Sequence record: OR539217.1
Length of the DNA stretch: 64,000 nucleotides
Reading direction: 5' to 3' (one strand)
From: Escherichia phage vB-Eco-KMB22
The notes below the pieces were generated by a model, which ran no database searches, had not been told where the DNA came from, and saw only the letters and a program-made list of their open reading frames with translations. Position 1 is the stretch's first letter. Every line of letters begins with the position of its first letter. Below, piece by piece: positions 14,137-32,389 of this stretch. The translations under genes were made by a program, and so were the position numbers.

Positions 14137-15231
14137 ATGGCAATTGTTAAAGAAATAACTGCTGATTTAATTAAAAAGTCCGGTGAGAAAATTTCAGCCG
14201 GACAGAGTACTAAATCAGAAGTAGCAACTAAAACATACACTGCCCAGTTTCCAACTGGGCGTGCTAGTGGTAATGACACTACAGGGGACTTCCAGGTAAC
14301 AGATCTATATAAGAATGGATTATTATTTACTGCATACAATATGTCATCTAGGGATTCTGGAAGTCTTAGATCGATGAGATCTAACTACTCTTCTTCATCT
14401 TCGAGTATTTTAAGTACAGCTAGAAACACTATTAGTAGTACAGTATCAAAACTATCAAATGGATTAATATCAAATAATAATTCAGGAACAATAAGTAAAG
14501 CTCCTGTCGCAAACATTCTTTTACCGAGATCTAAATCTGATGTTGATACATCATCACATAGATTTAATGATGTTCAAGAAAGTCTTATCAGTAGAGGTGG
14601 AGGCACTGCTACCGGTGTGCTAAGTAATATTGCTTCAACTGCAGTATTTGGGGCATTGGAAAGTATAACACAAGGTATAATGGCTGATAATAATGAACAG
14701 ATTTATACGACAGCCAGAAGTATGTATGGTGGTGCCGAAAATAGAACTAAAGTGTTTACATGGGATTTGACTCCACGTTCAACAGAAGATTTAATGGCTA
14801 TTATTAATATCTATCAATATTTTAACTATTTTTCTTATGGTGAAACGGGTAAATCTCAATATGCTGCTGAAATAAAGGGGTATTTAGATGATTGGTATCG
14901 TTCTACGTTAATTGAACCTTTATCTCCGGAAGACGCAGCTAAAAATAAAACACTATTTGAGAAAATGACATCGAGTTTAACTAACGTTCTAGTGGTTTCA
15001 AACCCGACAATTTGGATGGTGAAAAACTTTGGTGCAACATCTAAGTTTGATGGAAAAACGGAAATATTTGGCCCATGCCAAATACAAAGCATCAGATTTG
15101 ATAAAACACCTAATGGTAACTTTAACGGATTAGCTATTGCTCCAAACCTCCCTAGTACATTTACTCTCGAGATTACTATGAGAGAAATTATTACGTTAAA
15201 CCGTGCTTCTTTATATGCGGGGACTTTTTAA
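14137..15231 (+). CDS. 48: baseplate-tail tube junction protein gp48
   Basis: 364 aa, position. Confidence 0.9.
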   Translation: MAIVKEITADLIKKSGEKISAGQSTKSEVATKTYTAQFPTGRASGNDTTGDFQVTDLYKNGLLFTAYNMSSRDSGSLRSMRSNYSSSSSSILSTARNTISSTVSKLSNGLISNNNSGTISKAPVANILLPRSKSDVDTSSHRFNDVQESLISRGGGTATGVLSNIASTAVFGALESITQGIMADNNEQIYTTARSMYGGAENRTKVFTWDLTPRSTEDLMAIINIYQYFNYFSYGETGKSQYAAEIKGYLDDWYRSTLIEPLSPEDAAKNKTLFEKMTSSLTNVLVVSNPTIWMVKNFGATSKFDGKTEIFGPCQIQSIRFDKTPNGNFNGLAIAPNLPSTFTLEITMREIITLNRASLYAGTF

Positions 15232-16196
15232 TGTATTCTTTAGAGGAATTTAATAATCAAGCAATAAACGCAGATTTCCAACGTAATAATATGTTTAGCT
15301 GCGTTTTTGCGACAACTCCATCAACTAAAAGCTCTTCGTTGATAAGTTCAATTAGCAACTTTTCTTATAATAACTTGGGCCTAAATTCAGATTGGCTAGG
15401 ATTAACTCAAGGTGATATTAATCAGGGAATTACCACGCTAATTACAGCTGGCACACAAAAACTGATAAGAAAATCAGGGGTTAGTAAATATCTTATTGGT
15501 GCCATGAGTCAACGTACAGTTCAAAGTTTATTGGGCTCATTTACAGTTGGTACATATTTAATTGACTTCTTTAACATGGCATATAACTCATCTGGATTGA
15601 TGATATACTCTGTAAAAATGCCAGAGAATAGATTATCCTATGAAACTGATTGGAACTATAATTCTCCTAATATTCGTATAACTGGGAGAGAATTAGACCC
15701 TTTGGTTATTTCATTTAGAATGGATTCAGAAGCTTGTAACTATCGTGCAATGCAAGACTGGGTTAACTCCGTTCAAGACCCAGTAACTGGACTGCGTGCT
15801 TTGCCACAAGATGTCGAGGCAGATATTCAGGTTAATCTTCATTCTCGCAATGGATTACCTCATACTGCGGTGATGTTCACAGGATGCATTCCAATATCAG
15901 TGAGCGCTCCTGAGTTATCATATGATGGAGATAACCAAATAACTACATTTGATGTTACTTTTGCGTACAGAGTGATGCAGGCTGGAGCAGTTGATAGGCA
16001 AGCTGCGCTTGAATGGCTTGAATCTGCTGCTATAAATGGTATTCAAAGCGTTCTCGGAAATAGTGGAGGTGTTACTGGACTATCTAATTCGCTTTCACGA
16101 CTTAGTAGATTAGGAGGGACTGCTGGAAGCATTTCAAACATTAATACTATGACAGGAATTGTTAATTCGCAGAGTAAAATATTAGGAGCAATATAA
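15231..16196 (+). CDS. 54: baseplate-tail tube initiator gp54
   Basis: 321 aa, gp48/gp54 paralog pair, followed by strong hairpin. Confidence 0.9.
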   Translation: MYSLEEFNNQAINADFQRNNMFSCVFATTPSTKSSSLISSISNFSYNNLGLNSDWLGLTQGDINQGITTLITAGTQKLIRKSGVSKYLIGAMSQRTVQSLLGSFTVGTYLIDFFNMAYNSSGLMIYSVKMPENRLSYETDWNYNSPNIRITGRELDPLVISFRMDSEACNYRAMQDWVNSVQDPVTGLRALPQDVEADIQVNLHSRNGLPHTAVMFTGCIPISVSAPELSYDGDNQITTFDVTFAYRVMQAGAVDRQAALEWLESAAINGIQSVLGNSGGVTGLSNSLSRLSRLGGTAGSISNINTMTGIVNSQSKILGAI

Positions 16197-16198
16197 CA

Positions 16199-16222
16199 AT
16201 GGGGACCTTTCGGTCCCCATAT
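16199..16222. terminator. bidirectional hairpin after gene 54
   Basis: ggggacc-tttc-ggtcccc between convergent genes. Confidence 0.75.
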
Positions 16223-16224
16223 TT

Positions 16225-16515
16225 TTATTTACGGAATGAAATGAAAGCAGAAACTGAAGCAACTAAACTGTCTTCAATATAAACTTCAATTTTTACCGGA
16301 GCTTCTGACTCGAATTTACCTGTTACTACACCTTGGAAAATACTTTCAGTTTGTTCTGGCTTTGAAAAATTTTCAGAAGGAAAAATTCCGAACTTTTTAT
16401 CTGTTCCAAAAATTTTGATAAATTCATCATAAACTGCTTCATTAAAAGCATTATCAGCAGGAATAACGCCTTCAACTACAAGTTCTTGACCTAAAAAGCG
16501 CAAAGAAGATTTCAT
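16225..16515 (-). CDS. hypothetical early protein
   Basis: 96-aa ORF with GAGGAA SD; early promoter immediately upstream (16547-16576). Confidence 0.6.
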   Translation of the reverse strand: MKSSLRFLGQELVVEGVIPADNAFNEAVYDEFIKIFGTDKKFGIFPSENFSKPEQTESIFQGVVTGKFESEAPVKIEVYIEDSLVASVSAFISFRK

Positions 16516-16546
16516 TTTGTGTTCCTCATGTTATGTCAGTAAGACT

Positions 16547-16576
16547 ACTATAACACAACACGAGGGACTTGTAAAC
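16547..16576 (-). promoter_or_regulatory. early (sigma70-type) promoter GTTTACA-17-TATAGT
   Basis: -35/-10 spacing and 54-bp near-identity with 32333-32386. Confidence 0.7.
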
Positions 16577-18633
16577 TACATCTTGAACTTTTTAGACATT
16601 CCGTTGATGTTAACCAAAGAAGCCAAGATTTGAGAAACTTCGTTTTCCTCTTCTTTTGATTCTTCTACAAGGAATTGATTAAATCCAGCCATTGGACGAA
16701 CTTCACCAGTTTCCATTAAATGGTCGCCATCATATACTGATTCTTCTAATTGTTCAGAAGGAGGAACGATTGTACCTTCTATTAGATACTTGTTATAAGC
16801 AGTTTCTTTCATAAAGTACGTACTTACTTTATTAATCTTCAGTAAAATTCCACGCGGTAGAATAACTTCAGCTTCTGATGGAAATCCTGATAAATGACCT
16901 GGAACGATAACTTTGATTCGCTCAGCTCCTTTAATTACCATACCCACGCTAGTTTCAGCATCTTCAATGGCATATGTAGAATGACTACCCATATGCATTA
17001 AATCTTCTGCATCAACGGAACCTTCTCCTTCGCCAGAAAATACTGCGCCGGAATCATCTAGAGCCATATAGTTTTTACCATGCTCACCGAAGATATTTGG
17101 TTTAAGTGATGTCGATACGAAGTTCTTGAAATAGAACATTTTGTTTTCAATGTTATGACGCAAAGTTTTAAAGGTAACTTCTTGTCCACGGTAAAGTGTA
17201 GTTCCTGGAGGAAGAACTGATCCTTTGGCAAAGGCAGAATCCAACGTCTCGATGTGCTTAATAGCTCGTTCCATATATTCTTCACGGGTAGAATCTGGTT
17301 TACCCAAAAGGAACGAGTTCATTTCAACATATGAATCTGCACAATAATCTTCAATTACATCAGATTCAGCTTGGGTTAATCCTTTTGGAGTTACTTCGGT
17401 GCTTGCGTATTCATATGCCTGGGCAGCAGATTCATTAATCAATTTATAAATGCCATTCATGACAAATTGAATAATAGCTGTCTTTTCATCTGGCGTAGCT
17501 TTAGAACCTTTAACTAAATCATTAATAATTTTCTTAATAACATCAAAGCTATTAGAAATATTAATGTCAGCAAGATCGCTTAAAATTTTATCAGTTTTAT
17601 AATCAAAGAATTCTTTATTCTTTAAATATTCTTGAGAACCTTGATATGTTATATCGCTCTGCAACTTGATAGATGGATCACGTAAACGTGCATGGGCTAA
17701 TGCAATATGATTTCGGAAGTTTTCTAGTTCATAATCGTTAGATTTAAAACGAGAAGCACTTCTCATACCACCGATAGCTCCTTTGCTAAAGTTTGAACCA
17801 ATCTGGATAACCCCGGAGTTCATCGGACCTTCTGCTTTATATACCGGAACTTTAGATTCAAACTCTTGATATTTCTTGACAGCGAAGCTATCACCCTGGA
17901 GTGAAGCATCAACAGTAGAATATTGAGCTTGTGCTGCTAATCGACGACTAATTTTAGTTTTCTGAATAACAGCTTGATCCGTGCGCTTATCATTTTCTAA
18001 AGCAATAGAAGCAGCAACAGCAACAGCTTTAGGAACAGCATTACCTGTTTTAACGTCTACATAAACATCACCAACCTTTGATTCAACTTTTGTGAATAAC
18101 TCAGTTGAAATAGGAGGTACACCTGGAATGTCTTCTAAATTGGCATTTTTACGGTAAACCATAATATATGCATATTTCTTATCATAGTCCCAGATTTCCT
18201 TTAAGAGAACATATCGACCTGCTCCTTTAGTACGTACTAAACGGTCAGCAATAACTTGCATTTGACGAGCTGCGCCATTTGTTTTACTCTTTAGTACGCG
18301 GAATAGGCATGCGTCGATTTTATACTGTTTCATTGTTTGAAGAGCAGTATCAAAAACAGCATTAATGACGCCAATTGGATTTCCACCCAAGTTTCTAAGC
18401 TTAACCAGCGATAATTTCTCGTTGACACCTATCATTACGATATGCATCATTTTATCGCCCGGCTTAACGTTTTTATTTGTATCACCGCCAGAGGTGTATG
18501 TACAAAATCTAAATCCAGGAAGCACGCTTTCTTCACCGGCTTGAATAGCAAAAATTTGAGGTATTTTATGCTTAGGATTTAAGTTAACAACCGGCGCCGA
18601 AGCGCCGTCAAATAATTCTGTAATAAGTTCCAT
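16576..18633 (-). CDS. Alt-family mono-ADP-ribosyltransferase paralog
   Basis: 685 aa; N-terminal ~235 aa closely parallel the downstream Alt (MELITELFD...); C-terminal region has ART R / STS / EAE motifs (LYRGQ, FVSTSL, EAEVILPRG). Confidence 0.8.
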   Translation of the reverse strand: MELITELFDGASAPVVNLNPKHKIPQIFAIQAGEESVLPGFRFCTYTSGGDTNKNVKPGDKMMHIVMIGVNEKLSLVKLRNLGGNPIGVINAVFDTALQTMKQYKIDACLFRVLKSKTNGAARQMQVIADRLVRTKGAGRYVLLKEIWDYDKKYAYIMVYRKNANLEDIPGVPPISTELFTKVESKVGDVYVDVKTGNAVPKAVAVAASIALENDKRTDQAVIQKTKISRRLAAQAQYSTVDASLQGDSFAVKKYQEFESKVPVYKAEGPMNSGVIQIGSNFSKGAIGGMRSASRFKSNDYELENFRNHIALAHARLRDPSIKLQSDITYQGSQEYLKNKEFFDYKTDKILSDLADINISNSFDVIKKIINDLVKGSKATPDEKTAIIQFVMNGIYKLINESAAQAYEYASTEVTPKGLTQAESDVIEDYCADSYVEMNSFLLGKPDSTREEYMERAIKHIETLDSAFAKGSVLPPGTTLYRGQEVTFKTLRHNIENKMFYFKNFVSTSLKPNIFGEHGKNYMALDDSGAVFSGEGEGSVDAEDLMHMGSHSTYAIEDAETSVGMVIKGAERIKVIVPGHLSGFPSEAEVILPRGILLKINKVSTYFMKETAYNKYLIEGTIVPPSEQLEESVYDGDHLMETGEVRPMAGFNQFLVEESKEEENEVSQILASLVNINGMSKKFKM

Positions 18634-18636
18634 GAT

Positions 18637-20733
18637 TTATCCTTGAACGAACTTGTAAGGCATGTTTGTAATATCTATGCAAGACGCAATAATTCCAAGA
18701 GATGATTCTACTTTCTGTTTAACATTTGATGAAACAAATGATGCAAAGTCAACTCTGTCTTCTATTTCAATATCACCTGTCATTGCAACTACTTCACCGG
18801 TTTCCATTAAATGGTCTCCGTCATAGATTACCGATTCGGTGAGCTCTTCCGTGGTCATAACTTCAGCTTGAATGAGTTTTGTATTATTAGATGTTGTTCC
18901 GTCATTATTAGAAGCATCAGTTATTTTATTAACTTTGACCATCAATCCACGCGGTAGAATAACTTCAGCTTCTGTTGCTATTCCGAGACTTCCTGGATAT
19001 ACAACATTAACTTTATGAGCTCCATCAATTGCCCATCCTATTTGAACTTTAACGTATTCAGGATTTTCTTTATACGCTCTTATTTCGTTTGGATTAATAG
19101 TTATTCCTTCTTCATTTTTATCAACTGTTAATTCATTGCGAGCTTCTGGTTCTAAAAGACCAATACCAGCATGTGTGATTCCAAAACGTCCAAAAATGAT
19201 AGGAGTTAAAGAAGTAGATACAAAATTTCTGAAGTAGAACACTTTATTTTTAACTAACGCTTCATATATAGGAGCAGTCATACTTTGAGCACGATAAACT
19301 GTAATGCCTTCTGGTATACGGTCACCATTTTCAAAAGCTGAATCTAAGTTATTTATAGCAGATTCAATTTCTTTTTCACTCATTACATCATATCGTTCTG
19401 GATTGTAACGACCTAAAAGAAGATTATTGATGTCAGTATATCCTGAACCGCAATATTCTCTAATGCCACGCTTTTGTGATGGAGTATATTTAGAACCATC
19501 GCGGGCAATAGTAATATCAATCATTGGACCAGCACCAATTCCAGAAAAACTGTAAATCATTCGTTTGAGGAATTTAGTTTTTGCTGCGTTCCAGGAATTT
19601 TTAGTCATTTCTTCCCAGACTTCATCTGGCTGCCCTTTACGAGTTTTATTATGTTTATCAAGCCAATTATCTTTATATTCTTCAAAGAGTTGATTAACAG
19701 CTGCTGCGTATTTCTCTAAACATTTTATTGAAGTAGTTGGTTCATTTTTAATCGCATTAAGAATTACATCTTTAATTTTTTCAGAAACTTCATTAACCTC
19801 ACTTTTTGAAAAGAATTTATAGTCATAATGAAGTTCATCTGCGGTTCCTTCGGCAATAATTTTTGCTGCCTTAGTTTTAGAAGCTAATGAATTAATTCCA
19901 AGTTTCATTTCTTCTGCTTCGGGAATTAAAGGAGCGGTAGCAGGTTTATTGAAATTAGCTGCGGTAGATTCATATTTCTGGAATAATTCACTTTCAAATC
20001 TAGAAGATTCCAATGACTGACTTTGTGCAATTGCTCTACGGGAAATTTTAACTTTAACGATTACAGCTTGGTCAGAACGTTTATCATTTTCTTGTGCAAT
20101 AGATGCAGCAATTGCCTCATTTTTAGTTACTTGAGCTCCAGTATCTTTATTGATATAAACATCACCGACCTTCGATTCAACTTTAGTAAAGAGCTCGGTG
20201 CTAATTTCCGGAACTCCTGGAATGTCTTCTAGTGATACATTTTTGCGATGTATAAGAATATATGCATACTTTTTATCGTAATCCCAGAGTTCCTTAAGAA
20301 GGACGTATCTGCCACCTGAACGACTGCGGATAAGTCTATCAGCAATAAGTTGAATTTGACGAGCTTGACCAGCAGTTTTAGACTTAAGAATACGGAGCAT
20401 ACAGGCATCAATTTTATACTGACGCATCGTCTGCATCGCAACAGTAAAAACTGAATTGATGTAATTAATTGGGCTTGGACCGAGACCTTTTAATTTAGCA
20501 ATTGAACCTTTAGCAGTTAATGTAAAAGGAACAATATGCATCATTTTATCGCCCATCTTTAAATCGCGATTAGTATCACCTCCAGATGTATAGGTACATA
20601 AACGAAAGCCTGGTTGTTCAATTGCGTCATCAACACGAACTGAAAAAATTTGCGGTATTTTCTTCTTTGGATTTAAGTTTGTAATCGGAAGAGTAGTATC
20701 TTCGTCAAATAATTCTGTAATAAGTTCCATCAT
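18637..20733 (-). CDS. alt: Alt ADP-ribosyltransferase (head-packaged, injected)
   Basis: 698 aa; MELITE N-terminal propeptide; R-STS-EXE motifs; late promoter TATAAATA upstream at 20754-20761. Confidence 0.85.
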   Translation of the reverse strand: MMELITELFDEDTTLPITNLNPKKKIPQIFSVRVDDAIEQPGFRLCTYTSGGDTNRDLKMGDKMMHIVPFTLTAKGSIAKLKGLGPSPINYINSVFTVAMQTMRQYKIDACMLRILKSKTAGQARQIQLIADRLIRSRSGGRYVLLKELWDYDKKYAYILIHRKNVSLEDIPGVPEISTELFTKVESKVGDVYINKDTGAQVTKNEAIAASIAQENDKRSDQAVIVKVKISRRAIAQSQSLESSRFESELFQKYESTAANFNKPATAPLIPEAEEMKLGINSLASKTKAAKIIAEGTADELHYDYKFFSKSEVNEVSEKIKDVILNAIKNEPTTSIKCLEKYAAAVNQLFEEYKDNWLDKHNKTRKGQPDEVWEEMTKNSWNAAKTKFLKRMIYSFSGIGAGPMIDITIARDGSKYTPSQKRGIREYCGSGYTDINNLLLGRYNPERYDVMSEKEIESAINNLDSAFENGDRIPEGITVYRAQSMTAPIYEALVKNKVFYFRNFVSTSLTPIIFGRFGITHAGIGLLEPEARNELTVDKNEEGITINPNEIRAYKENPEYVKVQIGWAIDGAHKVNVVYPGSLGIATEAEVILPRGLMVKVNKITDASNNDGTTSNNTKLIQAEVMTTEELTESVIYDGDHLMETGEVVAMTGDIEIEDRVDFASFVSSNVKQKVESSLGIIASCIDITNMPYKFVQG

Positions 20734-20753
20734 AGCCTCTCTAGTGTTTATTC

Positions 20754-20761
20754 TATTTATA
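20754..20761 (-). promoter_or_regulatory. late promoter TATAAATA for alt
   Basis: exact match on - strand upstream of alt ATG. Confidence 0.65.
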
Positions 20762-20765
20762 AAAT

Positions 20766-20787
20766 TAAAGGCCCGAAGGCCTTTAAT
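20766..20787 (-). terminator. CUUCGG hairpin upstream of alt late promoter
   Basis: aaaggcc-cgaa-ggccttt (UUCG on - strand). Confidence 0.6.
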
Positions 20788-20971
20788 AATCTATTGGTAA
20801 GAGAGTACGATATATTTCAAACTTTGGGCCTTTTTCATAAGCATCAAAAGTTTCTGTGAATTTATTATAAGCATATGCATCTATAAATTCAATCATGATT
20901 TGTGATACAGAAGTAGAAACATCTCCACCTTCTTTTTGAGCCACGACAATTGTTTCTAAGTAAGCTTTCAT
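20783..20971 (-). CDS. hypothetical small protein
   Basis: 62-aa ORF between ligase and alt. Confidence 0.5.
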   Translation of the reverse strand: MKAYLETIVVAQKEGGDVSTSVSQIMIEFIDAYAYNKFTETFDAYEKGPKFEIYRTLLPIDY

Positions 20972-22431
20972 AGACCAGTTACCTCATGAAAATCACCAAA
21001 TACATCCTCGAATGTATTAGCTTTAGTTTTATCTTCACGTAAACGAATCGCAATCGGAAGAAATAATTTAACGTAATCAGTGCGTCCATCAGATTTTAAC
21101 CAACCGTTGCATTCGCACTCTAGAATTTTTCCAATATAATAATTTTGGTTTTCCATGATGCGAGTACGGTCAAGTTCATGCGATTTTACACCGGCTTTAT
21201 CTTTTAAGCCTGAACCAGCATTTACTTTAATTTTTCCACATTCTGATTCAAGAATAAATCCACCCGCTTTAGTAGGGTCTTTACGGTGAGGATAAATTCC
21301 TACAATTTTTAAATCAACATCAATTACTTCTTTAAATTTATAGAGATTTTTTGAACGAGCATTTTCCCATAATCCATCGATATTTTTGAGAATAATACCT
21401 TCAAGACCTTGGTCAATATACTTTTTATAAATTACCTTAGCTTCATCTAGGTTATTTACTACTTGGTTTTCAATTAAAATTACTTTATCATATCCTGATG
21501 TCATTTGTTCTAGTTTAGAAAAACGTACATCATATTTTAAACGAAACGCAGGAAGACCGTATATTTCTACCAACGGGACATAATCCCAGACCTGAAACTT
21601 CATGCATTGAGCTTCTTTTTCAGAAATGGTTCCTTTTAAGGATTTATTGGCGATTCCATTAGAAGTAGTACGAGATTCCGCTACTTCGGCGAATTCTTTA
21701 GCTTTACTAATTTCAGGATAAGCATCAAAAAGAAAATCTAGGCCTTCTGGTTCCTTTTTAACTTGCTCATGGTATACCAATTCGCCATCAATTAACACGC
21801 CTTCTGGATGAATCTGGCGGGCTTCAGCAGTCATTTTGATTAACTCTTCCTTAAGAAGATCTAATCCTAGATATTCATTACCAGCTCGTGATAAAAGACG
21901 AACATCATCTAATTCATCACCTCTAACTTCAGCAAAACACCGAGCTCCATCTGCTTTTAACTGCGCAAAGGCTGGAAACTTGATATTTTTACTAATGCCT
22001 TTTTCATCATAAGAACTTGCCAACATTTGAGGTTGTTCAGGAATTAAACCTGGCCAAACTTTGTTTGCAATAGATACTGAAGCACCGCATTCAAGGTCTC
22101 GCATCATCACTCGACGCAAAACTTCAACATCATCCTTTTTACCATCAGTGATATATCCAGTTAATTCCTCAATTGCCGCATTTCCAGTCAATTTCCGAGT
22201 AGCCAACGTGAATTCAATGAAGTCGAGCATATCTGTAATAGTCAGCATCCCAAAACTCTGGGTAGCAATACCAGGTTTAGGCCATTTCTTGATATAATAC
22301 TGTAACCCACGAGAATAAGTCAGACGATATACTCGTTTAAGCAATTCGTTATCTTTATTCTTTTCAAGAATTGCTTGCTTCTGCTTAGTTGATCCAATAG
22401 ATGCTATTTCATTCAGAATTTTAAGAATCAT
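20968..22431 (-). CDS. 30: ATP-dependent DNA ligase gp30
   Basis: 487 aa; ligase adenylation motifs (KADGAR lysine motif); length as T4 ligase. Confidence 0.95.
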   Translation of the reverse strand: MILKILNEIASIGSTKQKQAILEKNKDNELLKRVYRLTYSRGLQYYIKKWPKPGIATQSFGMLTITDMLDFIEFTLATRKLTGNAAIEELTGYITDGKKDDVEVLRRVMMRDLECGASVSIANKVWPGLIPEQPQMLASSYDEKGISKNIKFPAFAQLKADGARCFAEVRGDELDDVRLLSRAGNEYLGLDLLKEELIKMTAEARQIHPEGVLIDGELVYHEQVKKEPEGLDFLFDAYPEISKAKEFAEVAESRTTSNGIANKSLKGTISEKEAQCMKFQVWDYVPLVEIYGLPAFRLKYDVRFSKLEQMTSGYDKVILIENQVVNNLDEAKVIYKKYIDQGLEGIILKNIDGLWENARSKNLYKFKEVIDVDLKIVGIYPHRKDPTKAGGFILESECGKIKVNAGSGLKDKAGVKSHELDRTRIMENQNYYIGKILECECNGWLKSDGRTDYVKLFLPIAIRLREDKTKANTFEDVFGDFHEVTGL

Positions 22432-22697
22432 TGTTCATCCTTTAGAGTTTGATTTACAGCTCTATTATAAATCAATTCATCATTAAGCTCAGGCAAAGAC
22501 TTATGATATGTAGTTCTAACTTTATTTCCTTGCATCCAGTGCTTGACGTAAATGAAACCTTGCTCTACGCATTTTTTAAAAATTCGTTCGTCTTTTTGAG
22601 CTCGGAATTCTGGATTGCATCTAAAAAATTGATTTACGTGACCGTAATCACGTGTAGTATTACCTTCATTTTCATAAATAGTGTGAACGACAAACAT
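22428..22697 (-). CDS. hypothetical protein (30.1 position)
   Basis: 89-aa ORF, start/stop coupled to neighbours. Confidence 0.6.
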   Translation of the reverse strand: MFVVHTIYENEGNTTRDYGHVNQFFRCNPEFRAQKDERIFKKCVEQGFIYVKHWMQGNKVRTTYHKSLPELNDELIYNRAVNQTLKDEQ

Positions 22698-23560
22698 TAG
22701 AATGCTCCTTGGAAAATATTATCACCACTAGTAAATCTATTAAAATACCCTGCATCACCAGGCTTAGTATAACTCCACGTATGGAATGGATTCATATGAT
22801 ACGGGTGTGTATAATATGGATTATATGGATGTGTATAATATGGATTATACGGATTAAATCCAGGAGTTCTCCAGGTAGTGTTCCAACGAAAAGAATCATT
22901 TTTAATCATCTTTTCAATTACATCTTTTATAGCTTTTTCACTATCAAAACTTTCTTTATTTTCCTTCGGTGAAAAAAGCTTATTTTCTACATCATTCCAT
23001 GTATAAACTCGCTGCGCAGTTTTTGGAATATTGTCACGCTCTCCTCGAGCCATCCAATAAACAGGAACATTTAATATTTCACTCGCATGATCGCAGTGGT
23101 GAGCAAGATCGTCAATATAACAAATTACGTTATATTTCTCTTTTGCCTTTTTGAATAACTCTTCTTTTGAAGAATCATGACCACACATCATTACTTCTGA
23201 GAAGGCACCAGGAAAAAGAGCATTCAAATTAAATTGACGATTCAACAAAGCATCAATAGAATCACCCAATGCTGTAACAGCTACAAAATTATAATCTTCT
23301 TTTAGTTTGTTAATTACACACAGGGCATCTTTATATGGAGACAAATAGCGAATAAAATCTGAACGATTATACTTTTCGATTAATTTAACACCGAGTTCTT
23401 CATCGCAATTAAAGAGCTTACCAGGAGAAATAAATTTTTCGTCCTGAATCATTTTTAAAATATGTTCTAATGGAAGATTATATTTTTGGGCAAAATAAGG
23501 AAGACCTGATTGCCAGCTTAAACATACACCATCAATATCAGTCAAAATAGTAGGCTTCAT
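22697..23560 (-). CDS. HAD-like hydrolase with Pro/Tyr-rich C-terminal repeat (30.2 position)
   Basis: 287 aa; N-terminal DIDGV HAD motif I; C-terminal NPYNPYYTHPY repeats encoded by 24-bp tandem repeat. Confidence 0.65.
   Translation of the reverse strand: MKPTILTDIDGVCLSWQSGLPYFAQKYNLPLEHILKMIQDEKFISPGKLFNCDEELGVKLIEKYNRSDFIRYLSPYKDALCVINKLKEDYNFVAVTALGDSIDALLNRQFNLNALFPGAFSEVMMCGHDSSKEELFKKAKEKYNVICYIDDLAHHCDHASEILNVPVYWMARGERDNIPKTAQRVYTWNDVENKLFSPKENKESFDSEKAIKDVIEKMIKNDSFRWNTTWRTPGFNPYNPYYTHPYNPYYTHPYHMNPFHTWSYTKPGDAGYFNRFTSGDNIFQGAF
22805..22852. repeat. 24-bp in-frame tandem repeat (2 units, 22/24 identical) in HAD-like gene
   Basis: encodes repeated NPYYTHPY on - strand. Confidence 0.85.
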
Positions 23561-24021
23561 AGAGAGTCTCTTAGTAGGTTTAACACATCAATAAATTCAG
23601 CTTCGGTTAGTATTGTATCATCTTTTGTTAGACCACTAGCCATGCTGTGCTTCAAAACTTTTCCTTTTGAGGCTTGTAAGGCATCACGAAACCCCTTGTT
23701 TTGAATCGCTGCTTCAAAATATGCATTTGTATACAACTCTTTCCACGCTGGAGAGTATCTTGAAAATGGAACTCCCAGCCAGAAGAGGGTCCCACGGTCC
23801 TGAGCTCTTGCATAAGACCTTCCAGCTTGTTGGGCGGCAACCCCGGATAACCCAAATATACGTCTTTGCTGCTCAACATTTTTCACCTTGCATCCTTGGA
23901 GGAATCCTTCGAGACCTCCAAATTGAATACCATCCATGACGAAAGGCCATTGGGCGAAATTACTTAATGCACATGATGGCCACCTAAAATTGCTTCTAAT
24001 CTCTAACTCAGACATTTTCAA
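23557..24021 (-). CDS. NADAR (YbiA-like) domain protein (30.3 position)
   Basis: 154 aa; SNFAQWPFVMDG...Q..K segment resembles the YbiA/NADAR core motif (recalled). Confidence 0.55.
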   Translation of the reverse strand: MKMSELEIRSNFRWPSCALSNFAQWPFVMDGIQFGGLEGFLQGCKVKNVEQQRRIFGLSGVAAQQAGRSYARAQDRGTLFWLGVPFSRYSPAWKELYTNAYFEAAIQNKGFRDALQASKGKVLKHSMASGLTKDDTILTEAEFIDVLNLLRDSL

Positions 24022-24214
24022 TGCTTATAATTTCAACATCAGCCCAATGACCATAGCAAGGAAGACGAAATTCAACTGGCCAGTTAGGGTCCTTTTCTAA
24101 TATAATAGACTTAACTTGTGGTTCTTCATGTTCATCTGTATACGGATTTTTATCTGTTACTTTATATGTGACCTTAATGTACTGAATTCCAAAAATCTTA
24201 TTAATTATATTCAT
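24008..24214 (-). CDS. hypothetical protein
   Basis: 68-aa ORF. Confidence 0.5.
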   Translation of the reverse strand: MNIINKIFGIQYIKVTYKVTDKNPYTDEHEEPQVKSIILEKDPNWPVEFRLPCYGHWADVEIISIENV

Positions 24215-24408
24215 ACTAATTCCTTTAATCCATAGATAGGAGATAATTCATCACCCATACGAAGGTCTTCATTTCCATCTACCCAGGAAACAATATAAGC
24301 ATCTTTTACTTGAACATCTCCCAATTTAAATGCAGGTAAAACCTTAGAAATTAATCCAGGTATACCAATTCCCTTTAATTCAACAGTTTGACCTAAAAAG
24401 AATTTCAT
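24211..24408 (-). CDS. hypothetical protein
   Basis: 65-aa ORF. Confidence 0.5.
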   Translation of the reverse strand: MKFFLGQTVELKGIGIPGLISKVLPAFKLGDVQVKDAYIVSWVDGNEDLRMGDELSPIYGLKELV

Positions 24409-24695
24409 TAGAACCTCATCTGAAAACCATGCGATTTAACATTACCACCACCAATATCAGAGATATTAATTTCGCGCGCAATTGAAGGGTCAATGTCAAT
24501 TTCGCGATTGAGTTTAGTGATAGCTAAAGTATCACGCCAATTTACTGTACGGAATTCTAAAGGACAAACCACATCAACGTAATTTTTAATCGATTCACTG
24601 GTAGGTTGCAAATGAGCAGGAAGGTCTTTGGGCGCCTTTGAGAAAACCACTTCACAGAAATTTTTGCGGGTGTCAAAATAAGTAGTCATAAACAT
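24408..24695 (-). CDS. hypothetical protein; start moved to internal ATG with SD
   Basis: ORF-track start 24731 lies inside a GC hairpin; internal ATG at 24695 has GAGGA SD. Confidence 0.55.
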   Translation of the reverse strand: MFMTTYFDTRKNFCEVVFSKAPKDLPAHLQPTSESIKNYVDVVCPLEFRTVNWRDTLAITKLNREIDIDPSIAREINISDIGGGNVKSHGFQMRF

Positions 24696-24736
24696 AATAT
24701 TTTCCTCAGTAAGGGGGCCAAAGCCCCTCATTTATT

Positions 24737-25102
24737 TTAAATATCAAATTCGTTAAGAACTACATCAAAGATTGCTTCAAGATGCTCAGGTTTAGCTCTG
24801 TTACTCAGAATATGACGAATCCAAGTTTTAACCAGAAGCTTGCGATTAACGCCATTCCAGCAAGGATGAGTCCCTAAATCGCGTTGACGAAAATCATCAT
24901 CCAATGCGATTTTAAAAGAAGAACCTTCTTTCGTGATTGAAACCGTGATGCCATTTTCAAATCGCATATAAACGTAGTTAGGAGTCATATACTGCTCAAT
25001 TTCGCATACTGATCCATTTTGATGTTTCCAAAGGCAGATAGTATCAATAGAACCTGCAATACCGTTAGAAACATATTTACGTTCAAAGTTGATGTAATTC
25101 AT
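24737..25102 (-). CDS. hypothetical protein
   Basis: 121-aa ORF. Confidence 0.55.
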   Translation of the reverse strand: MNYINFERKYVSNGIAGSIDTICLWKHQNGSVCEIEQYMTPNYVYMRFENGITVSITKEGSSFKIALDDDFRQRDLGTHPCWNGVNRKLLVKTWIRHILSNRAKPEHLEAIFDVVLNEFDI

Positions 25103-25172
25103 TTTTATTCTCCGAGATGTTTAATTGCGGTACAGGTATATAATATCATATCCTGTACCAAAGTAAACTATT

Positions 25173-25541
25173 TTATGCAACTTTAATCCAATTATCTAAA
25201 TTTAATTCACCTTTGGCTTTCATTTTTTCAATCAAGAGGTCAGCGGTAATACGACCATTTTGATACCACGTAACATCTTCAGAGTAACCAGTTTCTTTAT
25301 CTTCATAAGTCTCACAGCGAATTTTACCAAGAATCAAAGTTTTTAATTCGTATGTATCTCCAGTAAAAAAGTTAGTTAACATTATTTTCCAAGAGAAATC
25401 ATCAGAAGGACCTTCAGGAGTCATGCAACCTACAAATTCAAATTGTTCTTTGTATAAGTGCCACTGAAGTTCTTTAGTTTCGATAGCTTTATAGCCGTCG
25501 TGGTCTTTACCTTTGATGTATGAGTTAAGATTGATTTTCAT
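25173..25541 (-). CDS. hypothetical early protein
   Basis: 122-aa ORF with early promoter 25569-25598 upstream. Confidence 0.6.
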   Translation of the reverse strand: MKINLNSYIKGKDHDGYKAIETKELQWHLYKEQFEFVGCMTPEGPSDDFSWKIMLTNFFTGDTYELKTLILGKIRCETYEDKETGYSEDVTWYQNGRITADLLIEKMKAKGELNLDNWIKVA

Positions 25542-25568
25542 TTTATTCTCCTTTGTTTGTGTAAGATA

Positions 25569-25598
25569 ATACTATCACAAAGGAGCCATACTGTAAAC
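25569..25598 (-). promoter_or_regulatory. early promoter GTTTACA-17-TAGTAT
   Basis: motif and spacing. Confidence 0.6.
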
Positions 25599-25651
25599 AA
25601 CTTTGTGCAATCTTTGGAAAATAAAAAAGGACTCCCGAAGGAGTCCTTAAC

Positions 25652-25828
25652 TTATGCTTTCTGCTTACCAAAACGAGAAGCATCATCTCGAAGAACCGCA
25701 CGTGCTCGGCGCATGATCTTCTCAACAGTTTGATTGATACGAGAGTTCGACCCACGCTTGTAACCAGCGCGTTTAGAATCACCAACTTTCTTTTCAACTG
25801 CTTTCTTTGCTTTAGCTTGTTTTGCCAT
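25652..25828 (-). CDS. small highly basic protein (Lys/Arg-rich), possible nucleic-acid binder
   Basis: 58 aa from internal ATG (ORF-track 25652..25870); composition. Confidence 0.45.
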   Translation of the reverse strand: MAKQAKAKKAVEKKVGDSKRAGYKRGSNSRINQTVEKIMRRARAVLRDDASRFGKQKA

Positions 25829-26022
25829 TATAAATTCTCTTTTAAATGAAAATGCAGGACTTATTGGCATTGCCTGCGCAAGCCCTCAAGGGGTACTTAG
25901 GTTTTGAATATTTACCGACAGGATAACCATAAACCTCGTCAACATTCAAGAGGTACACCGTAAAACAAAGTTCGACGGCTCCTCGTTTTAACTTCACACT
26001 AAGGCAGTGACTCTCCAATAAA

Positions 26023-26271
26023 TTACTTCAGTGTTACCACAAAGTGACGAACTGCTTTTCGTGCGGCAGAAGCCAGAGGCTTAGCATATTTAAGTTCATC
26101 TTTTTCCTGAAGCTCAGCAGCTAATGCAGTTTGAGCAGGATTCAGATGTTTGAAATAACGCAGGATTTCAAGAGCTTCGGCTTCAACATCAATAGATGCG
26201 CCATAGTTTTCGTGACCATTATTCCATGCGTTTCGTTGCAGTTCAAGAGCGTGTTGTAATTGTTTAATCAT
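26023..26271 (-). CDS. rIII: rIII lysis inhibition accessory protein
   Basis: 82 aa, matches recalled T4 rIII; position upstream of gene 31. Confidence 0.85.
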   Translation of the reverse strand: MIKQLQHALELQRNAWNNGHENYGASIDVEAEALEILRYFKHLNPAQTALAAELQEKDELKYAKPLASAARKAVRHFVVTLK

Positions 26272-26397
26272 TTAAAAATTCTCGTTAGAGATTAAAACTC
26301 GGTAGTCACGTTCTTCTGAATTTCATCTTCTTTCGACAGATCTCTCAGTTGTAGACTACCACATAGAATTGAAACTCAATTCATATTATTATTTATA

Positions 26398-26733
26398 TCA
26401 CTTATAAAGACACGGAATAGCTTTATAGTGACAGGTAACAAATTTTTGTTTAATTTCTTTTGGCTGCTTAAGACCTAGAGCTACAAAAGGATGCGGAACG
26501 TTTCGAATTTGACCAACTGGAAGAGAAGTCAAATCACCAACTTCGCAGAAACCTTCAGGAACATCAGGACCAACAGAGTGAACTACACACAGTTCAGGAA
26601 CTTCACCTTGGACACGTTTACCAATAATAAGTCCTGATTCTGTAACTTCTTCATCACCGGCTTGCGCAGGTTCAGAAACTAAAATAACATATTCACCGAC
26701 AGCACGAATTGGTAGCTGTTGTACTTCAGACAT
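26398..26733 (-). CDS. 31: co-chaperonin gp31 (GroES analogue)
   Basis: 111 aa, matches recalled T4 gp31. Confidence 0.9.
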
Positions 26734-26763
26734 CGTTTTTCCTTTTTGTTAACAGATGAATTA

Positions 26764-26790
26764 ATAATAACAAATAATTCTTAAAGCATT
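26764..26790 (-). promoter_or_regulatory. candidate middle promoter (MotA box AATGCTTTA then TATTAT) for gene 31
   Basis: MotA-box-like element ~12 nt upstream of -10-like hexamer. Confidence 0.4.
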
Positions 26791-27098
26791 TATTTACCAA
26801 TAAATTGAAGCAAATGCTCAACTTTCATGCCATTAACGGAAATCAATTTGTCAATAGAAAAACCTCGCCATGCACCGAGTTCAACATCAAATATCGGAAT
26901 CATATCAGTAGATTCTTTCCGAGTAGATTCAGTCAATTTACCGGTTTGCATAGTTGGCATAAAGTCAGCATCACGGGTGCCTTTCATAGTACGAATAGTA
27001 CCATCAGACTTTTCAAAAACCACGTTTGAAATACCCATGGACAATTTAGTTTTCAAAATTTCACGAATTGCTACTTTCTGTTCAGTTGTCAGTTTCAT
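26790..27098 (-). CDS. hypothetical protein (31.1 position)
   Basis: 102-aa ORF. Confidence 0.55.
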   Translation of the reverse strand: MKLTTEQKVAIREILKTKLSMGISNVVFEKSDGTIRTMKGTRDADFMPTMQTGKLTESTRKESTDMIPIFDVELGAWRGFSIDKLISVNGMKVEHLLQFIGK

Positions 27099-27335
27099 TT
27101 ATTTACCTATTACAGTTTTAATATGAGTTGTTCCACGTTCTTTAAGAGTGGAAAGCAACTTTTGGCATTTTTCTAAATCAGATTTCCAACTATACGGCCT
27201 ATCAATACAAACCCATTCTGACTTATAATACTGTTTCCATTTAGAGAAAAAATATTTCTTATACTCTACAGCAAATGAAATGTTCTCGTTAGAATAAGAA
27301 CTAATTGCTGTGAGCTGTACCAAACGAAATTTCAT
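27099..27335 (-). CDS. hypothetical protein (31.2 position)
   Basis: 78-aa ORF. Confidence 0.55.
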   Translation of the reverse strand: MKFRLVQLTAISSYSNENISFAVEYKKYFFSKWKQYYKSEWVCIDRPYSWKSDLEKCQKLLSTLKERGTTHIKTVIGK

Positions 27336-27916
27336 TATTCACCACAGAATTCGTTGATATTTTCCCAATTTAACTTATTCAAGTTTTTCTTAGGAACATT
27401 AAACACTTCAATACCTGCATTTCGCAGAATATCATCCCAGCCAGGTTTATTTTTATCGTATGTTTCGCAATAAACCAGTTTTTTAATTCCAGATTGAGCT
27501 ATGGCTTTTGCACAATCCGGACAAGGAGAAAGTGTTACATACATAGTAGCACCTTCAATTGAAGAACCGTTTCGTGCAGCAAACAAAATCGCATTTAGTT
27601 CAGCATGAATTTCATTTTTAGACGACCATTCAGAGTGAGCATTACGATGTTCTTTCGCCAAGACAAAACGATCAGTTGAACCAAATGATACACATTCAGG
27701 CTTATGACCTTGAATGATAGTATGTTTAGGTTTATTCAACAACCAACCTTGCTCGGCAGCATAATCGCAGCAATTCACACCACCTGCCGGAGAACCGTTA
27801 TATCCGGTAGAAATAATACGTCCATTCTTTTCAATTACTGCTCCTACCTTCCAGGAGCAACATTTTGATTCTTGTGATACTAAATATGCAATTTGAAGTA
27901 CTGTACTCGCTTTCAT
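27335..27916 (-). CDS. cd: dCMP deaminase
   Basis: 193 aa; zinc-binding HAE...PCxxC deaminase motifs (HAELNAI, PCPDCAKAI). Confidence 0.9.
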   Translation of the reverse strand: MKASTVLQIAYLVSQESKCCSWKVGAVIEKNGRIISTGYNGSPAGGVNCCDYAAEQGWLLNKPKHTIIQGHKPECVSFGSTDRFVLAKEHRNAHSEWSSKNEIHAELNAILFAARNGSSIEGATMYVTLSPCPDCAKAIAQSGIKKLVYCETYDKNKPGWDDILRNAGIEVFNVPKKNLNKLNWENINEFCGE

Positions 27917-28251
27917 TTCATAATCACCAGATAAGCAGATTTAGCAGTTTCAACACGATAAATTTCGTGACGAAGTTTAGTTATACTTTTAATAACAGAA
28001 CTAATTATATTCTGCCCATCTTTAAAGCGGTTTTTCTTATCAATAAAAATTGCACCAGCCATCTTTTTGTGAAGCTCAACTGGATATTTCGTCACAATAA
28101 TAGCATCATACACAGAAGGATGAATACTATTCACTAGAGTATCATTCATTAAAGTTATTCTAATGAACTGTGCTGTTTCAGAATCAAGCGCTCTATGATC
28201 GCCAGTATCATTTTCAAGACAATTATCAATTATATCAGTTAAATTCATCAT
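27913..28251 (-). CDS. hypothetical protein (cd.x cluster)
   Basis: 112-aa ORF. Confidence 0.5.
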   Translation of the reverse strand: MMNLTDIIDNCLENDTGDHRALDSETAQFIRITLMNDTLVNSIHPSVYDAIIVTKYPVELHKKMAGAIFIDKKNRFKDGQNIISSVIKSITKLRHEIYRVETAKSAYLVIMK

Positions 28252-28484
28252 AGTACGCCATACACCCTTTGTGCTTCAACTAATCCATCAAAATCCAGTT
28301 TAAGATGTGTTATTTGGTCACCATCACCTGGATTCACAATTACTAATACTGAACGAGGAGTTTCGGTAATAACACGAACCGATGTTTCTGGAAATCGTTC
28401 AGAAACCTTATTTACCAATTCCTGAGCAAATAGTTTAACTTTTTCTTGGAATTCTTTAACAGTAATTGGTTTTTCACTTAGCAT
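28248..28484 (-). CDS. hypothetical protein (cd.x cluster)
   Basis: 78-aa ORF. Confidence 0.5.
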   Translation of the reverse strand: MLSEKPITVKEFQEKVKLFAQELVNKVSERFPETSVRVITETPRSVLVIVNPGDGDQITHLKLDFDGLVEAQRVYGVL

Positions 28485-29005
28485 GTTGATCCCAGCTCCT
28501 TACTTTCAACGTTTTTAACTAATTTGACAGAAACTAATTCGGCATCTTGAGTAATCATTACCGGGCCTTCTTCATACTCTTCAAGATATTCTAGAGCTTT
28601 CTTTTTAGCTTCTTCCTTCGTATCAGTTTGAGCATAGATATAAAACATACAACCAGTAATACCTACTACTTTCCACTTAATTTCTTTATCAGTTTTAATT
28701 TCAAATTTACTGATAGAGTCATCTTTTTGAACTTCTTCGAAAAAATAATATTCTGACATATAAGTAATTGAAAATAGCGGGCTATCTTTATAAGATTCGC
28801 CCATTACATCAACAGCTTTATACCAGCAATCGTCAATTTCGCGTTTAATGCTAATAACATTTTTCGCAGGATCTATTTTTACTTTAAATGAATTTTCCCC
28901 AATAAACTGAGAAATTCGTTTATTAGCCCCGCAAGTTTCATTAAAAATATCTTTATATCCAGCTTTAAAGTGATAAACCTTATCTTCTTCAAACCATTTG
29001 CTCAT
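28478..29005 (-). CDS. hypothetical early protein (cd.x cluster)
   Basis: 175-aa ORF; early promoter 29036-29065 upstream. Confidence 0.55.
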   Translation of the reverse strand: MSKWFEEDKVYHFKAGYKDIFNETCGANKRISQFIGENSFKVKIDPAKNVISIKREIDDCWYKAVDVMGESYKDSPLFSITYMSEYYFFEEVQKDDSISKFEIKTDKEIKWKVVGITGCMFYIYAQTDTKEEAKKKALEYLEEYEEGPVMITQDAELVSVKLVKNVESKELGSTC

Positions 29006-29035
29006 TTCAATTTCCTCATTTGTTTTGGTAGAGCT

Positions 29036-29065
29036 ATAATATCACAACTCTACCGTAAAGTAAAC
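29036..29065 (-). promoter_or_regulatory. early promoter GTTTAC-n-TATTAT
   Basis: motif. Confidence 0.55.
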
Positions 29066-29067
29066 TG

Positions 29068-29343
29068 TTAAATTGCCTTGAATTCTGATGTCTGTGATTC
29101 AAAGCGAATATCGCCTTTGATGACTAGCTCAGCATCAAGACCAAATACGACAATGATATGCGCAGAACCTGGATACAGCGTAATGGCAATAGAATCCACC
29201 TGGTCTGGAAGCAAAGTGTTCAATACATGAGTCACTTGAGCATGAATTCGAAGCTCAGCTGCGTTATCAAGCTTTTCAAACATATTATTAGCAATAATTT
29301 GACTAAACACTACTTCTACGATTTTAGAATAAGTCGGAAACAT
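29068..29343 (-). CDS. hypothetical protein
   Basis: 91-aa ORF. Confidence 0.5.
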   Translation of the reverse strand: MFPTYSKIVEVVFSQIIANNMFEKLDNAAELRIHAQVTHVLNTLLPDQVDSIAITLYPGSAHIIVVFGLDAELVIKGDIRFESQTSEFKAI

Positions 29344-29345
29344 AT

Positions 29346-29538
29346 TTACCTCACATAATTTTCTTCAAGCCAATCAATAACATCCAACGCATTATCAAAA
29401 GTTGAACCATCTACTTTGTCTTCTGTTTCATAATCAAGAACATCTAAGCCTACTCTTCCATCAACAATAGGCCATAAACAAAATAGATATTTCTTTTCTT
29501 TTTCAATTTTATCACAAAGACGATAAATCTTTTCTATA

Positions 29539-29546
<8 letters not shown>
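29346..29546 (-). CDS. hypothetical protein
   Basis: 66-aa ORF. Confidence 0.5.
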
Positions 29547-30957
<1,411 letters not shown>

Positions 30958-30961
<4 letters not shown>

Positions 30962-32386: not shown

Positions 32387-32389
32387 AGC

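Follow-up and report, generated by a model that had tools for sequence, protein, structure and literature searches.

A 54-bp early-promoter cassette shared by alc and alt.-3 in T4 and its relatives encodes a hairpin predicted to mask the Shine-Dalgarno sequence

Within a 64,000-nucleotide stretch of the genome of Escherichia phage vB-Eco-KMB22 (OR539217.1; hereafter the window), two distant genes are preceded by almost exactly the same 54 nucleotides. What is this element, when was it copied, and what might it do for the genes that it serves? A first-pass annotation, made from the sequence alone, had described it as a promoter and leader reused by two early genes and had proposed that the copying was recent, that the repeat could serve as a recombination substrate, and that the single base by which the copies differ provides a built-in difference in promoter strength. 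We therefore followed up these proposals by computational analysis of the window, of related phage genomes, and of metagenomic sequence collections.

The repeat was recovered as family D8 when the window was compared with itself. Its two copies, designated A (ahead of a 96-aa ORF that corresponds to alt.-3 in T4, NC_000866) and B (ahead of alc), lie 15.8 kb apart on the minus strand and are identical at 53 of 54 bp (16523-16576 versus 32333-32386; Table 1), with the sequence GTTTACAAGTCCCTCGTGTTGTGTTA[T/C]AGTAGTCTTACTGACATAACATGAGGA. The lone mismatch affects the third base of the -10 hexamer (cassette position 27), where the minus strand carries T at 16550 and C at 32360, so both the near-identity and the placement of the single difference (TATAGT versus TACAGT) stand as originally described. 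Sequence likeness ends sharply at either edge of both copies, and the flanks are unrelated. The gene upstream of copy A encodes a 685-aa Alt paralog, and the G of its TAG stop is at once the first base of the copy and the G of GTTTAC; the copy ends with GAGGA, 7 nt 5′ of the ATG of alt.-3. Copy B begins 3 nt past the TAA of rnlA and terminates at the GAGGA ahead of alc, whose start codon as annotated in T4 is the second ATG (32325), located 7 nt past GAGGA and thus at a spacing equal to that of alt.-3.

Table 1. Positions of the two cassettes, their parts, and neighboring features in the window.
Feature	Position	Strand	Counterpart in copy B	Remarks
Cassette copy A	16523-16576	-		Whole intergenic region, from the stop codon of the alt paralog to the Shine-Dalgarno (SD) sequence of alt.-3; family D8
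Cassette copy B	32333-32386	-		Entire rnlA-alc intergenic region; 53/54 identical to copy A
-35 hexamer TTTACA, copy A	16570-16575	-	32380-32385	From consensus scan
-10 hexamer TATAGT, copy A	16547-16552	-		Preceded by TGn; 17-bp spacer
-10 hexamer TACAGT, copy B	32357-32362	-		Differs from copy A solely at 32360 (C for T), within the 2-nt hairpin bulge
Predicted transcription start, copy A	16540	-	32350	A, 7 nt past the -10 hexamer; placed by spacing
Hairpin 5′ arm, copy A	16552-16565	-	32362-32375	Cassette positions 12-25, promoter spacer, CCUCGUGUUGUGUU
Hairpin 3′ arm, copy A	16524-16537	-	32334-32347	Cassette positions 40-53, leader and GAGG of the SD, GACAUAACAUGAGG
alc-specific CTT beyond the repeat	32330-32332	-		Lengthens the stem at alc (AAGTCC...GGACTT); counterpart absent at alt.-3
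alt.-3 (96 aa)	16225-16515	-		Gene behind copy A
alc (inhibitor of host transcription)	31822-32328	-		Gene behind copy B
alt paralog (685 aa)	16576-18633	-		Late gene in T4; TAG stop overlaps the first base of copy A; proposed source of read-through RNA
rnlA (RNA ligase 1, gene 63)	32390-33550	-		5′ of copy B; proposed source of read-through RNA
Bidirectional terminator-like hairpin, gene 54/alt.-3	16199-16220	.		Would close the copy-A transcription unit
Late-promoter motif TATAAATA	20754-20761	-		Just 5′ of the alt paralogs

A resemblance of this kind could in principle reflect convergent selection for one optimal promoter, or chance among constrained promoters, given that T4 early promoters have an extended consensus beyond the -35 and -10 elements (PMC2988021). 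We therefore compared the cassettes of the window’s 12 credible GTTTAC-class early promoters. The alc/alt.-3 pair was identical at a fraction of 0.98, against a median of 0.48 for the 66 pairs, and the next-best pair, which offers convergence some encouragement, reached 0.81. The 53/54 identity extends across spacer and leader positions that are not part of the consensus, outgroup genera have promoters at both sites with quite different sequences, and a comparable match arose in none of 100 dinucleotide-preserving shuffles. Convergence or chance is effectively refuted by the shuffles, the promoter background, and the outgroup sequences, and we consider it exceedingly improbable; the two cassettes are related by copying.

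The promoter anatomy described in the first-pass annotation (-35, -10, leader, and GAGGA SD) was recovered by a promoter consensus scan, which returned TTTACA-17-TATAGT at copy A (10 of 12 matches) and TTTACA-17-TACAGT at copy B (9 of 12 matches), both TG-extended. The T4 early promoter class consists of an UP element, a GTTTAC -35, TGn, and a -10 (Hinton 2010, PMC2988021), and the cassettes resemble it in their GTTTACA -35, 17-bp spacer, TGn, and TAnnnT -10, as well as in the early expression of their downstream genes in T4. They differ from the class in having TATAGT or TACAGT rather than TATAAT as the -10, and in lacking a clear A/T-rich UP element, the space next to the -35 being occupied by coding sequence. 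Clear A/T tracts are present upstream of the -35 of other promoters in the window.

Mapped 5′ ends at either copy, or usable genome-wide maps of T4 start sites, were not found in the accessible literature, and neither AF158101 nor NC_000866 carries a promoter annotation at the alt.-3 or alc site. Time-resolved T4 omics data classify alt.-3 and alc as early at both the RNA and the protein level (PMC9697503), and the label of early genes previously given to both is therefore correct. This early expression supports the presence of an early promoter of its own at each site, and the assignment of the cassettes as promoters, which is a consensus match, is thereby supported indirectly. In the same data, alt is late, and rnlA has early RNA but late protein (PMC9697503), so genes of different timing meet at each cassette. 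Alc, which is made early, terminates host transcription where the DNA contains cytosine (PMC2988021). Alt.-3, whose gene sits directly behind the late gene alt, is an uncharacterized and dispensable protein of 96 aa, and variants of it that are extended at the C terminus allow T4 to escape the CmdTAC defense system (PMC11618068).

The age of the copying can be judged from the distribution of the pair. The window is from a Tequatrovirus, with phages R5505 and teqdroes as best matches and about 500 records at 95-99% identity. In T4, the cassette at alc is identical to copy A of the window and that at alt.-3 has one change (ACTAACAT), and both -10 hexamers are TATAGT. A megablast search with the 54-mer against 50,697 phage records matched 448 of them at 741 places, and more than two places per record were seen in none of 60 sampled rows. 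We also searched for exact core matches, by a 17-mer in IMG/VR and by a 26-mer with two degenerate positions in JGI/ENA metagenomes, and all 16 matches lay 5′ of alc or alt.-3. These searches found no third cassette site in the window (allowing up to three mismatches), the phage records, IMG/VR, or the metagenomes. A mobile element with many insertion sites was also considered and dropped, because the searches gave the alc and alt.-3 sites alone.

To follow the copies after their separation, we read both sites in each of 10 Tequatrovirus genomes. The copies differ from each other at 0, 1, 1, 1, 2, 2, 2, 4, 5, and 6 of the 54 positions, and of the 18 variant occurrences, not one is seen at both sites of the same genome. 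Rather, identical variants reappear at the orthologous site across genomes. At the alc site, T27C is found in the window, in EH2, and in two metagenomic genomes, G16A and T33A occur together in phiD1 and phage 132, and T33A occurs by itself in IMG/VR 2974787500; at the alt.-3 site, G29A, G32A, and C34T are shared by EH2 and phage 132. Because the pair is present in T4 and throughout the genus and the variants are site-specific, the copying is old, having taken place in or before the Tequatrovirus ancestor, and we see no sign of ongoing homogenization. Since then the two sites have diverged slowly and separately, probably held in check by purifying selection. Thus, the first-pass annotation was right to propose copying but not that it was recent.

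The same data bear on the proposed difference in promoter strength, which was not borne out. T4 and most other genomes carry TATAGT at both sites, and C at the third -10 position is common in this promoter class, with TACTAT found in 4 of the 10 other promoters of the window. The T/C difference reflects a variant of the alc copy that is carried by one sublineage.

A rival account holds that ongoing gene conversion or recent copying keeps the copies alike and that the cassette is an active recombination substrate in present-day phages. Its 54 bp are about the minimal homology reported for efficient recombination in T4 (Singer et al. 1982), and some genomes have no differences between their copies. 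The promoter-early stem-loop (PeSL) cassettes of T4-type phages (Arbiol et al. 2010, PMC2839356; Comeau et al. 2014, PMC4122927) provide a precedent, since pairs of these elements recombine detectably in RB49/phi1 (PMC2839356), and PeSL copies are described as recombination sites at which neighboring genes are reshuffled. Moreover, an independent partial exchange between alc and alt.-3 sites is seen in IMG/VR 2706795356, a relative of JS98, in which the 3′ half of the alc cassette (ACCTTACACAAACATGAGGAGAACATT, 27 nt) is identical to that of its own alt.-3 cassette and the 5′ half of the alc cassette is retained; JS98 itself has no such 3′-half identity. The alc and alt.-3 sites of APCEc01 are likewise 0.83 identical, compared with a gapped background having a median of 0.65 and a 95th percentile of 0.72. 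These are single cases, and they fit the published PeSL crossovers, which map to the interval between the -10 and the SD (PMC2839356). Standing against ongoing conversion are the 0/18 mirrored variants, their recurrence by site, the differences at up to 6 of 54 positions, and the absence of a third site from the phage, IMG/VR, and metagenome searches. If the copies recombined reciprocally, about 15.8 kb would be lost, including the DNA ligase gene and gene 31. The evidence for recombination amounts to one inferred copy event in the Tequatrovirus ancestor and the one partial exchange in IMG/VR 2706795356. We therefore find ongoing conversion distinctly unlikely: the idea of a recombination substrate is plausible historically, in view of the copy event, the JS98-like partial exchange, and the PeSL literature, but signs of ongoing exchange were not seen.

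What the first-pass annotation overlooked is a predicted hairpin that would hide the SD on read-through RNA. The folded cassette forms a long hairpin (ΔG of -22 kcal/mol, z of -5.39), and an equally stable structure was obtained with none of 200 shuffled sequences. Positions 12-25 pair with positions 40-53, where 3 of the 14 main-stem pairs are G-U in Tequatrovirus, and an inner 4-bp stem (AGUA/UACU) borders the hairpin loop. The -10 element is enclosed in this structure, with T25 paired, A26 and T27 forming a 2-nt bulge, and A28-T30 located within the inner stem, such that the polymorphism T27C falls on a base of the bulge. Most main-stem polymorphisms keep the pairing (GU to AU, UG to UA, GC to GU, and UA to UG). 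Neither copy gave an Rfam match (15000-34000 scanned, E ≤ 1).

The predicted transcription start (position 37) lies 3′ of the entire 5′ arm, and consequently an RNA from the cassette’s own promoter could not form the hairpin, whereas an upstream-derived RNA could. We computed the cost of opening the region from SD to AUG as an ensemble energy with three lengths of downstream context, and at both copies it is predicted to be 2-4 kcal/mol for the self-initiated RNA versus 14-17 kcal/mol for the read-through RNA. Note that opening energy was used in place of the probability that the SD is unpaired. At alc this probability also separates the two RNAs (0.02 for read-through versus 0.75 for self-initiated RNA), but at copy A it gives no contrast and is misleading, owing to a weak 5-bp helix (GAGGA/UCUUC) predicted at the SD of the self-initiated alt.-3 RNA. 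The SD of this RNA has an unpaired probability of 0.03-0.17 with 20-90 nt of downstream sequence and of 0.80 with 10 nt. Opening energy is thus the sole measure that separates the two RNAs at copy A, and the prediction for alt.-3 should be read with this caveat.

A significant stem (z < -2.3) that brackets the -10 is present in 7 of the 12 early promoters of the window, and in 4 of these the SD belongs to the 3′ arm. The design is common among the early promoters of the window, and the cassette is an extreme case of it. Because these 7 stems are equally dyads in the DNA, they also lend themselves to the interpretation that the inverted repeat acts as DNA, perhaps as a cruciform, an easily melted promoter region, or a protein site, and that the RNA hairpin is a by-product. 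When genera are compared, the sense and antisense strands fold with similar stability (no significant difference, p = 0.21), which is compatible with a DNA-level role. In Tequatrovirus, however, the G-U pairs (3 of 14) give the sense RNA a stability of -24 kcal/mol versus -15 kcal/mol for the antisense strand, and the same positions would be G-T and A-C mismatches in a DNA cruciform. Furthermore, the polymorphisms interchange Watson-Crick and G-U pairs, and the 3′ arm tracks the SD. We consider a role confined to DNA very unlikely.

We next asked how widely the hairpin is conserved. In JS98 (Dhakavirus), APCEc01 (Mosigvirus), Marfa, and CIP9, both sites are present and the compact layout is kept, with a stop codon overlapping or abutting GTTTACA, N17, a -10, a leader of about 20 nt, and an SD, and the alc-site and alt.-3-site sequences are clearly unlike each other. 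The alc and alt.-3 upstream regions were gathered from IMG/VR genomes, and every unique cassette was folded. Because the alc stems are out of register between genera in a MAFFT alignment, column-wise covariation was replaced by an analysis of each hairpin in turn. Among 20 unique alc cassettes from other genera, 17 have a hairpin that spans the -10 with z ≤ -3, and in 14 of these 17 the SD is paired. The arms vary by lineage with pairing maintained (CCTCGTTTGTT/AACAAACGAGG, CCTCATTTTGTTG/CAACAAAATGAGG, AACCTCTCATTTT/AAAATGAGAGGTT, and TCTCCTCATG/CATGAGGAGA), and in the arms CCCATTTTGTT/AACAAAATGGG the SD and anti-SD covary; across the alc cassettes this covariation takes the form CCTC/GAGG versus CCCA/TGGG. 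In the set of 17 non-Tequatrovirus alc cassettes used to compare read-through with self-initiated RNA, 12 have a ΔΔG of at least 5 kcal/mol. Three alc cassettes, including the Mosigvirus type, have no hairpin. In three others (L036, L041, and L052) the hairpin ends before the SD, indicating that SD masking is not the sole conserved role of the stem.

The alt.-3 site behaves differently, with the hairpin found in none of the 9 unique cassettes from outside Tequatrovirus. Within the genus, one alt.-3 variant (L058) has three changes that keep pairing and a stem that reaches into the alt.-3-specific flank (ΔG of -25.7 kcal/mol, z of -6.2), and at alc the stem continues into flank peculiar to that site (AAGTCC...GGACTT). 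Because the hairpin is conserved at alc in other genera and absent from outgroup alt.-3 sites, we infer that the hairpin cassette probably belonged to alc originally and that alt.-3 received its copy in the Tequatrovirus ancestor; the two extended stems agree with this. The direction is read from structure, as sequence identity is uninformative on this point (0.68 versus 0.70, p = 0.48).

The published view of PeSL stem-loops suggests another function, in which the stem serves as a terminator or attenuator against polymerase arriving from upstream and the insulation is of transcription rather than translation. When tested in a transcriptional fusion, the stem-loop of an RB49 PeSL lowered lacZ expression to an extent similar to that of a strong terminator, and this role was proposed for PeSLs generally (Arbiol et al. 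2010, PMC2839356). Like an intrinsic terminator, the cassette hairpin is stable and lies where the upstream gene ends, the stem at alc is followed by the moderately U-rich CUUUAUGAU, and the three alc-site hairpins that stop short of the SD fit a role independent of masking. However, unlike an intrinsic terminator, the stem is not followed by a U tract, encloses a -10 element, and uses the SD of the next gene as its 3′ arm. Terminator scans were negative at both copies, the tail after copy A is AACACAAAAUG, with no U tract, and a G+C-rich stem followed by a run of U was seen at neither copy (tails AACACAAAAUG and CUUUAUGAUG), so we rejected the classification of the hairpin as an intrinsic terminator. 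In addition, 14 of the 17 alc cassettes that have a hairpin use the SD as its 3′ arm, and anti-SD and SD covary, features that a pure terminator would not need. Overall, a transcriptional role in place of SD masking seems to us unlikely.

With these alternatives weighed, we lean toward the interpretation that the element is an early cassette of the PeSL kind whose hairpin masks the SD, that it would limit translation to self-initiated early RNA, and that it was copied once from alc to alt.-3. The cassette would comprise the upstream stop codon, GTTTACA as the -35, a 17-bp spacer, TGn and the -10, a leader of about 13 nt, and the GAGGA SD. Host σ70 RNA polymerase would start at the A located seven nt past the -10, and the resulting RNA would carry the 3′ arm alone, leaving the SD open for early translation. 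An RNA entering from upstream would have both arms, and the hairpin would bury the SD. At copy A, read-through RNAs of this kind would be late transcripts of alt; at copy B, they would be transcripts through rnlA, either prereplicative or late. By terminator scan, there is no terminator between alt and copy A, and the interval from the next upstream GTTTAC promoter (40782) to copy B has no excess of terminator-like sites. Each gene would in this way be uncoupled from upstream transcription and confined to the early period, and the timing boundary at each cassette would give such a gate a job to do. The hairpin form would be ancestral at alc, and its single transfer to alt.-3 in the Tequatrovirus ancestor probably occurred by homologous exchange between two early-promoter cassettes that already existed. 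More tentatively, we suggest that the element may be a transplantable gate for early-only translation, of a design common among T4-type early promoters, conserved at alc in several genera and moved whole to alt.-3.

Such a gate has close counterparts among later-expressed T4 genes. In e (lysozyme), soc, 49, and I-TevI, the ribosome-binding site is sequestered by a helix that has an internal promoter (Uzan & Miller 2010, PMC3014915). There, the SD and/or AUG is held in a helix on RNA initiated upstream, as is predicted here for GAGG, and a promoter in the helix-coding DNA yields an RNA that lacks the 5′ arm, as would result from the start that we place by spacing. In these genes, translation is tied to one promoter and one time window. 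The difference lies in the timing, since their internal promoter is late (gp55) and the silenced RNAs are early or middle, whereas in the alc/alt.-3 cassette an early σ70 promoter would lie inside the helix and late or long prereplicative RNAs would be silenced, a reversed polarity. With similar reserve, the cassette may thus be regarded as the mirror image of T4 lysozyme, with the gene silent on the middle and late RNAs that sweep through it. The review that describes these T4 genes (PMC3014915) does not mention alc.

The closest published relatives of the cassette are the PeSLs, to which a T4/PST pair with the consensus TTTACW-N17-TAYWAT has been added (Comeau et al. 2014, PMC4122927). Like them, the cassette spans an upstream stop codon, a σ70-type early promoter, an SD, and a start codon, and it is repeated within a genome. 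TTTACA-N17-TATAGT/TACAGT with its TGn agrees with the T4/PST consensus. The definition of a PeSL calls for a stem-loop, in which G-T pairs may occur, situated either between the -35 and -10 or overlapping the latter; the stable stem-loop described here brackets the -10 and includes G-U pairs. There are also differences. PeSLs have an A/T-rich stretch upstream, but at both copies here the -35 is abutted by coding sequence. PeSLs are typically found 1-4 kb apart, next to small ORFans in hyperplastic regions, whereas the alc and alt.-3 copies are located 15.8 kb apart around essential genes, and at 98% they are far more alike than the usual members of a PeSL family. Finally, the SD itself constitutes the 3′ arm here, whereas the published role of the stem is termination or attenuation. 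A search of the accessible literature found no paper on the alc/alt.-3 pair. We therefore place the cassette with the PeSLs and T4 early promoters, and propose the SD-masking hairpin as a testable extension of that type.

In T4 and its relatives the repeat is both fixed and old, and it represents neither a recent event nor a tuning device. If the proposed action of the hairpin is true, then masking of a ribosome-binding site tied to one promoter would extend from the late genes of T4 to its early genes, and PeSL stem-loops would have a functional reason other than termination. Such an arrangement would also account for the timing of densely packed T4 early genes despite heavy read-through, and it would mean that a module consisting of promoter, gate, and SD was moved intact between unrelated genes. 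For annotation, it would supply a simple rule, namely to look for an early promoter with a spacer complementary to the SD.

Folding of the 12 GTTTAC-class early promoters in the window revealed a significant hairpin stem that brackets the -10 hexamer at seven of them (z, stability relative to shuffled sequences, -2.4 to -5.3), including both copies of the 54-nt promoter-leader cassette that precedes alt.-3 and alc. At promoters 61683 and 25597, the Shine-Dalgarno sequence also lies within the 3′ arm of the hairpin, for example CTGTTCTTCCGT...ACGGAGGAACAG. Adjoining promoter 25597, at 25613-25696 on the minus strand, is an Rfam match to the Rhizobiales sRNA Atu_C8 that stays below the gathering score of 50 (32.5 bits, E 0.004) and most likely arose by chance.

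A second early-promoter family has three members, two of which (58448-58523 and 62144-62219) are 80% identical across 76 nt. This similarity encompasses an A/T-rich UP-like tract and a palindrome, CCAC...GTGG, that resides inside the spacer. In three phages outside Tequatrovirus (JS98, Marfa, and APCEc01), the alt.-3 site carries the same spacer type.

Features located in the window
Feature	Position	Strand	Remark
Alt paralog	16576-18633		full length, in tandem
Alt paralog	about 18640-20730		full length, in tandem
Second-family promoter	58448-58523
Second-family promoter	62144-62219
Second-family promoter	41455-41530
Promoter with -10 hairpin	61683	-
Promoter with -10 hairpin	40782	-
Promoter with -10 hairpin	29064	-
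Promoter with -10 hairpin	25597	-
Promoter with -10 hairpin	25167	-
Cassette before alt.-3, with -10 hairpin	16523-16576	-
Cassette before alc, with -10 hairpin	32333-32386	-
Tandem duplication, 2 x 55 bp	58612-58721		copies 100% identical; window self-comparison

The two paralogs of Alt, the RNA polymerase ADP-ribosyltransferase, share 72-82% nucleotide identity in blocks at an offset of 2094 bp. Whereas T4 carries a single alt gene plus the remnants alt.-1 and alt.-2, two Alt paralogs are likewise found in JS98, phiD1, EH2, and phage 132.

The 55-bp tandem duplication lies within a small gene flanked by motA (57798-58433) and gene 52 (58762-60090). Because only 396 bp of the surrounding 451 bp are matched in the nearest relatives (G8, Ozark, and teqhad), these phages carry a single copy of the unit. 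Given that the unit length is not divisible by 3 and that no minus-strand ORF of at least 40 aa is left at the site, the duplication is probably private and frameshifting.

In the VR26-like IMG/VR genomes behind upstream regions L034, L035, and L054, there is no GTTTAC promoter upstream of alc, and its place is taken by a G+C-rich, terminator-like hairpin (AAAAGGGGTGTACAAGCCCCTT). The alc match in these genomes is ~240 nt longer, and therefore their alc locus is organized differently. Finally, in the JS98-like genome IMG/VR 2706795356, the 3′ half of the alc cassette is identical over 27 nt to that genome's own alt.-3 cassette (L040 and L062, respectively), with the identity extending through the spacer between the Shine-Dalgarno sequence and the ATG. 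JS98 itself lacks this shared 3′ half. Judged from these sequences, the genome appears to have undergone an independent partial exchange between its alc and alt.-3 sites.
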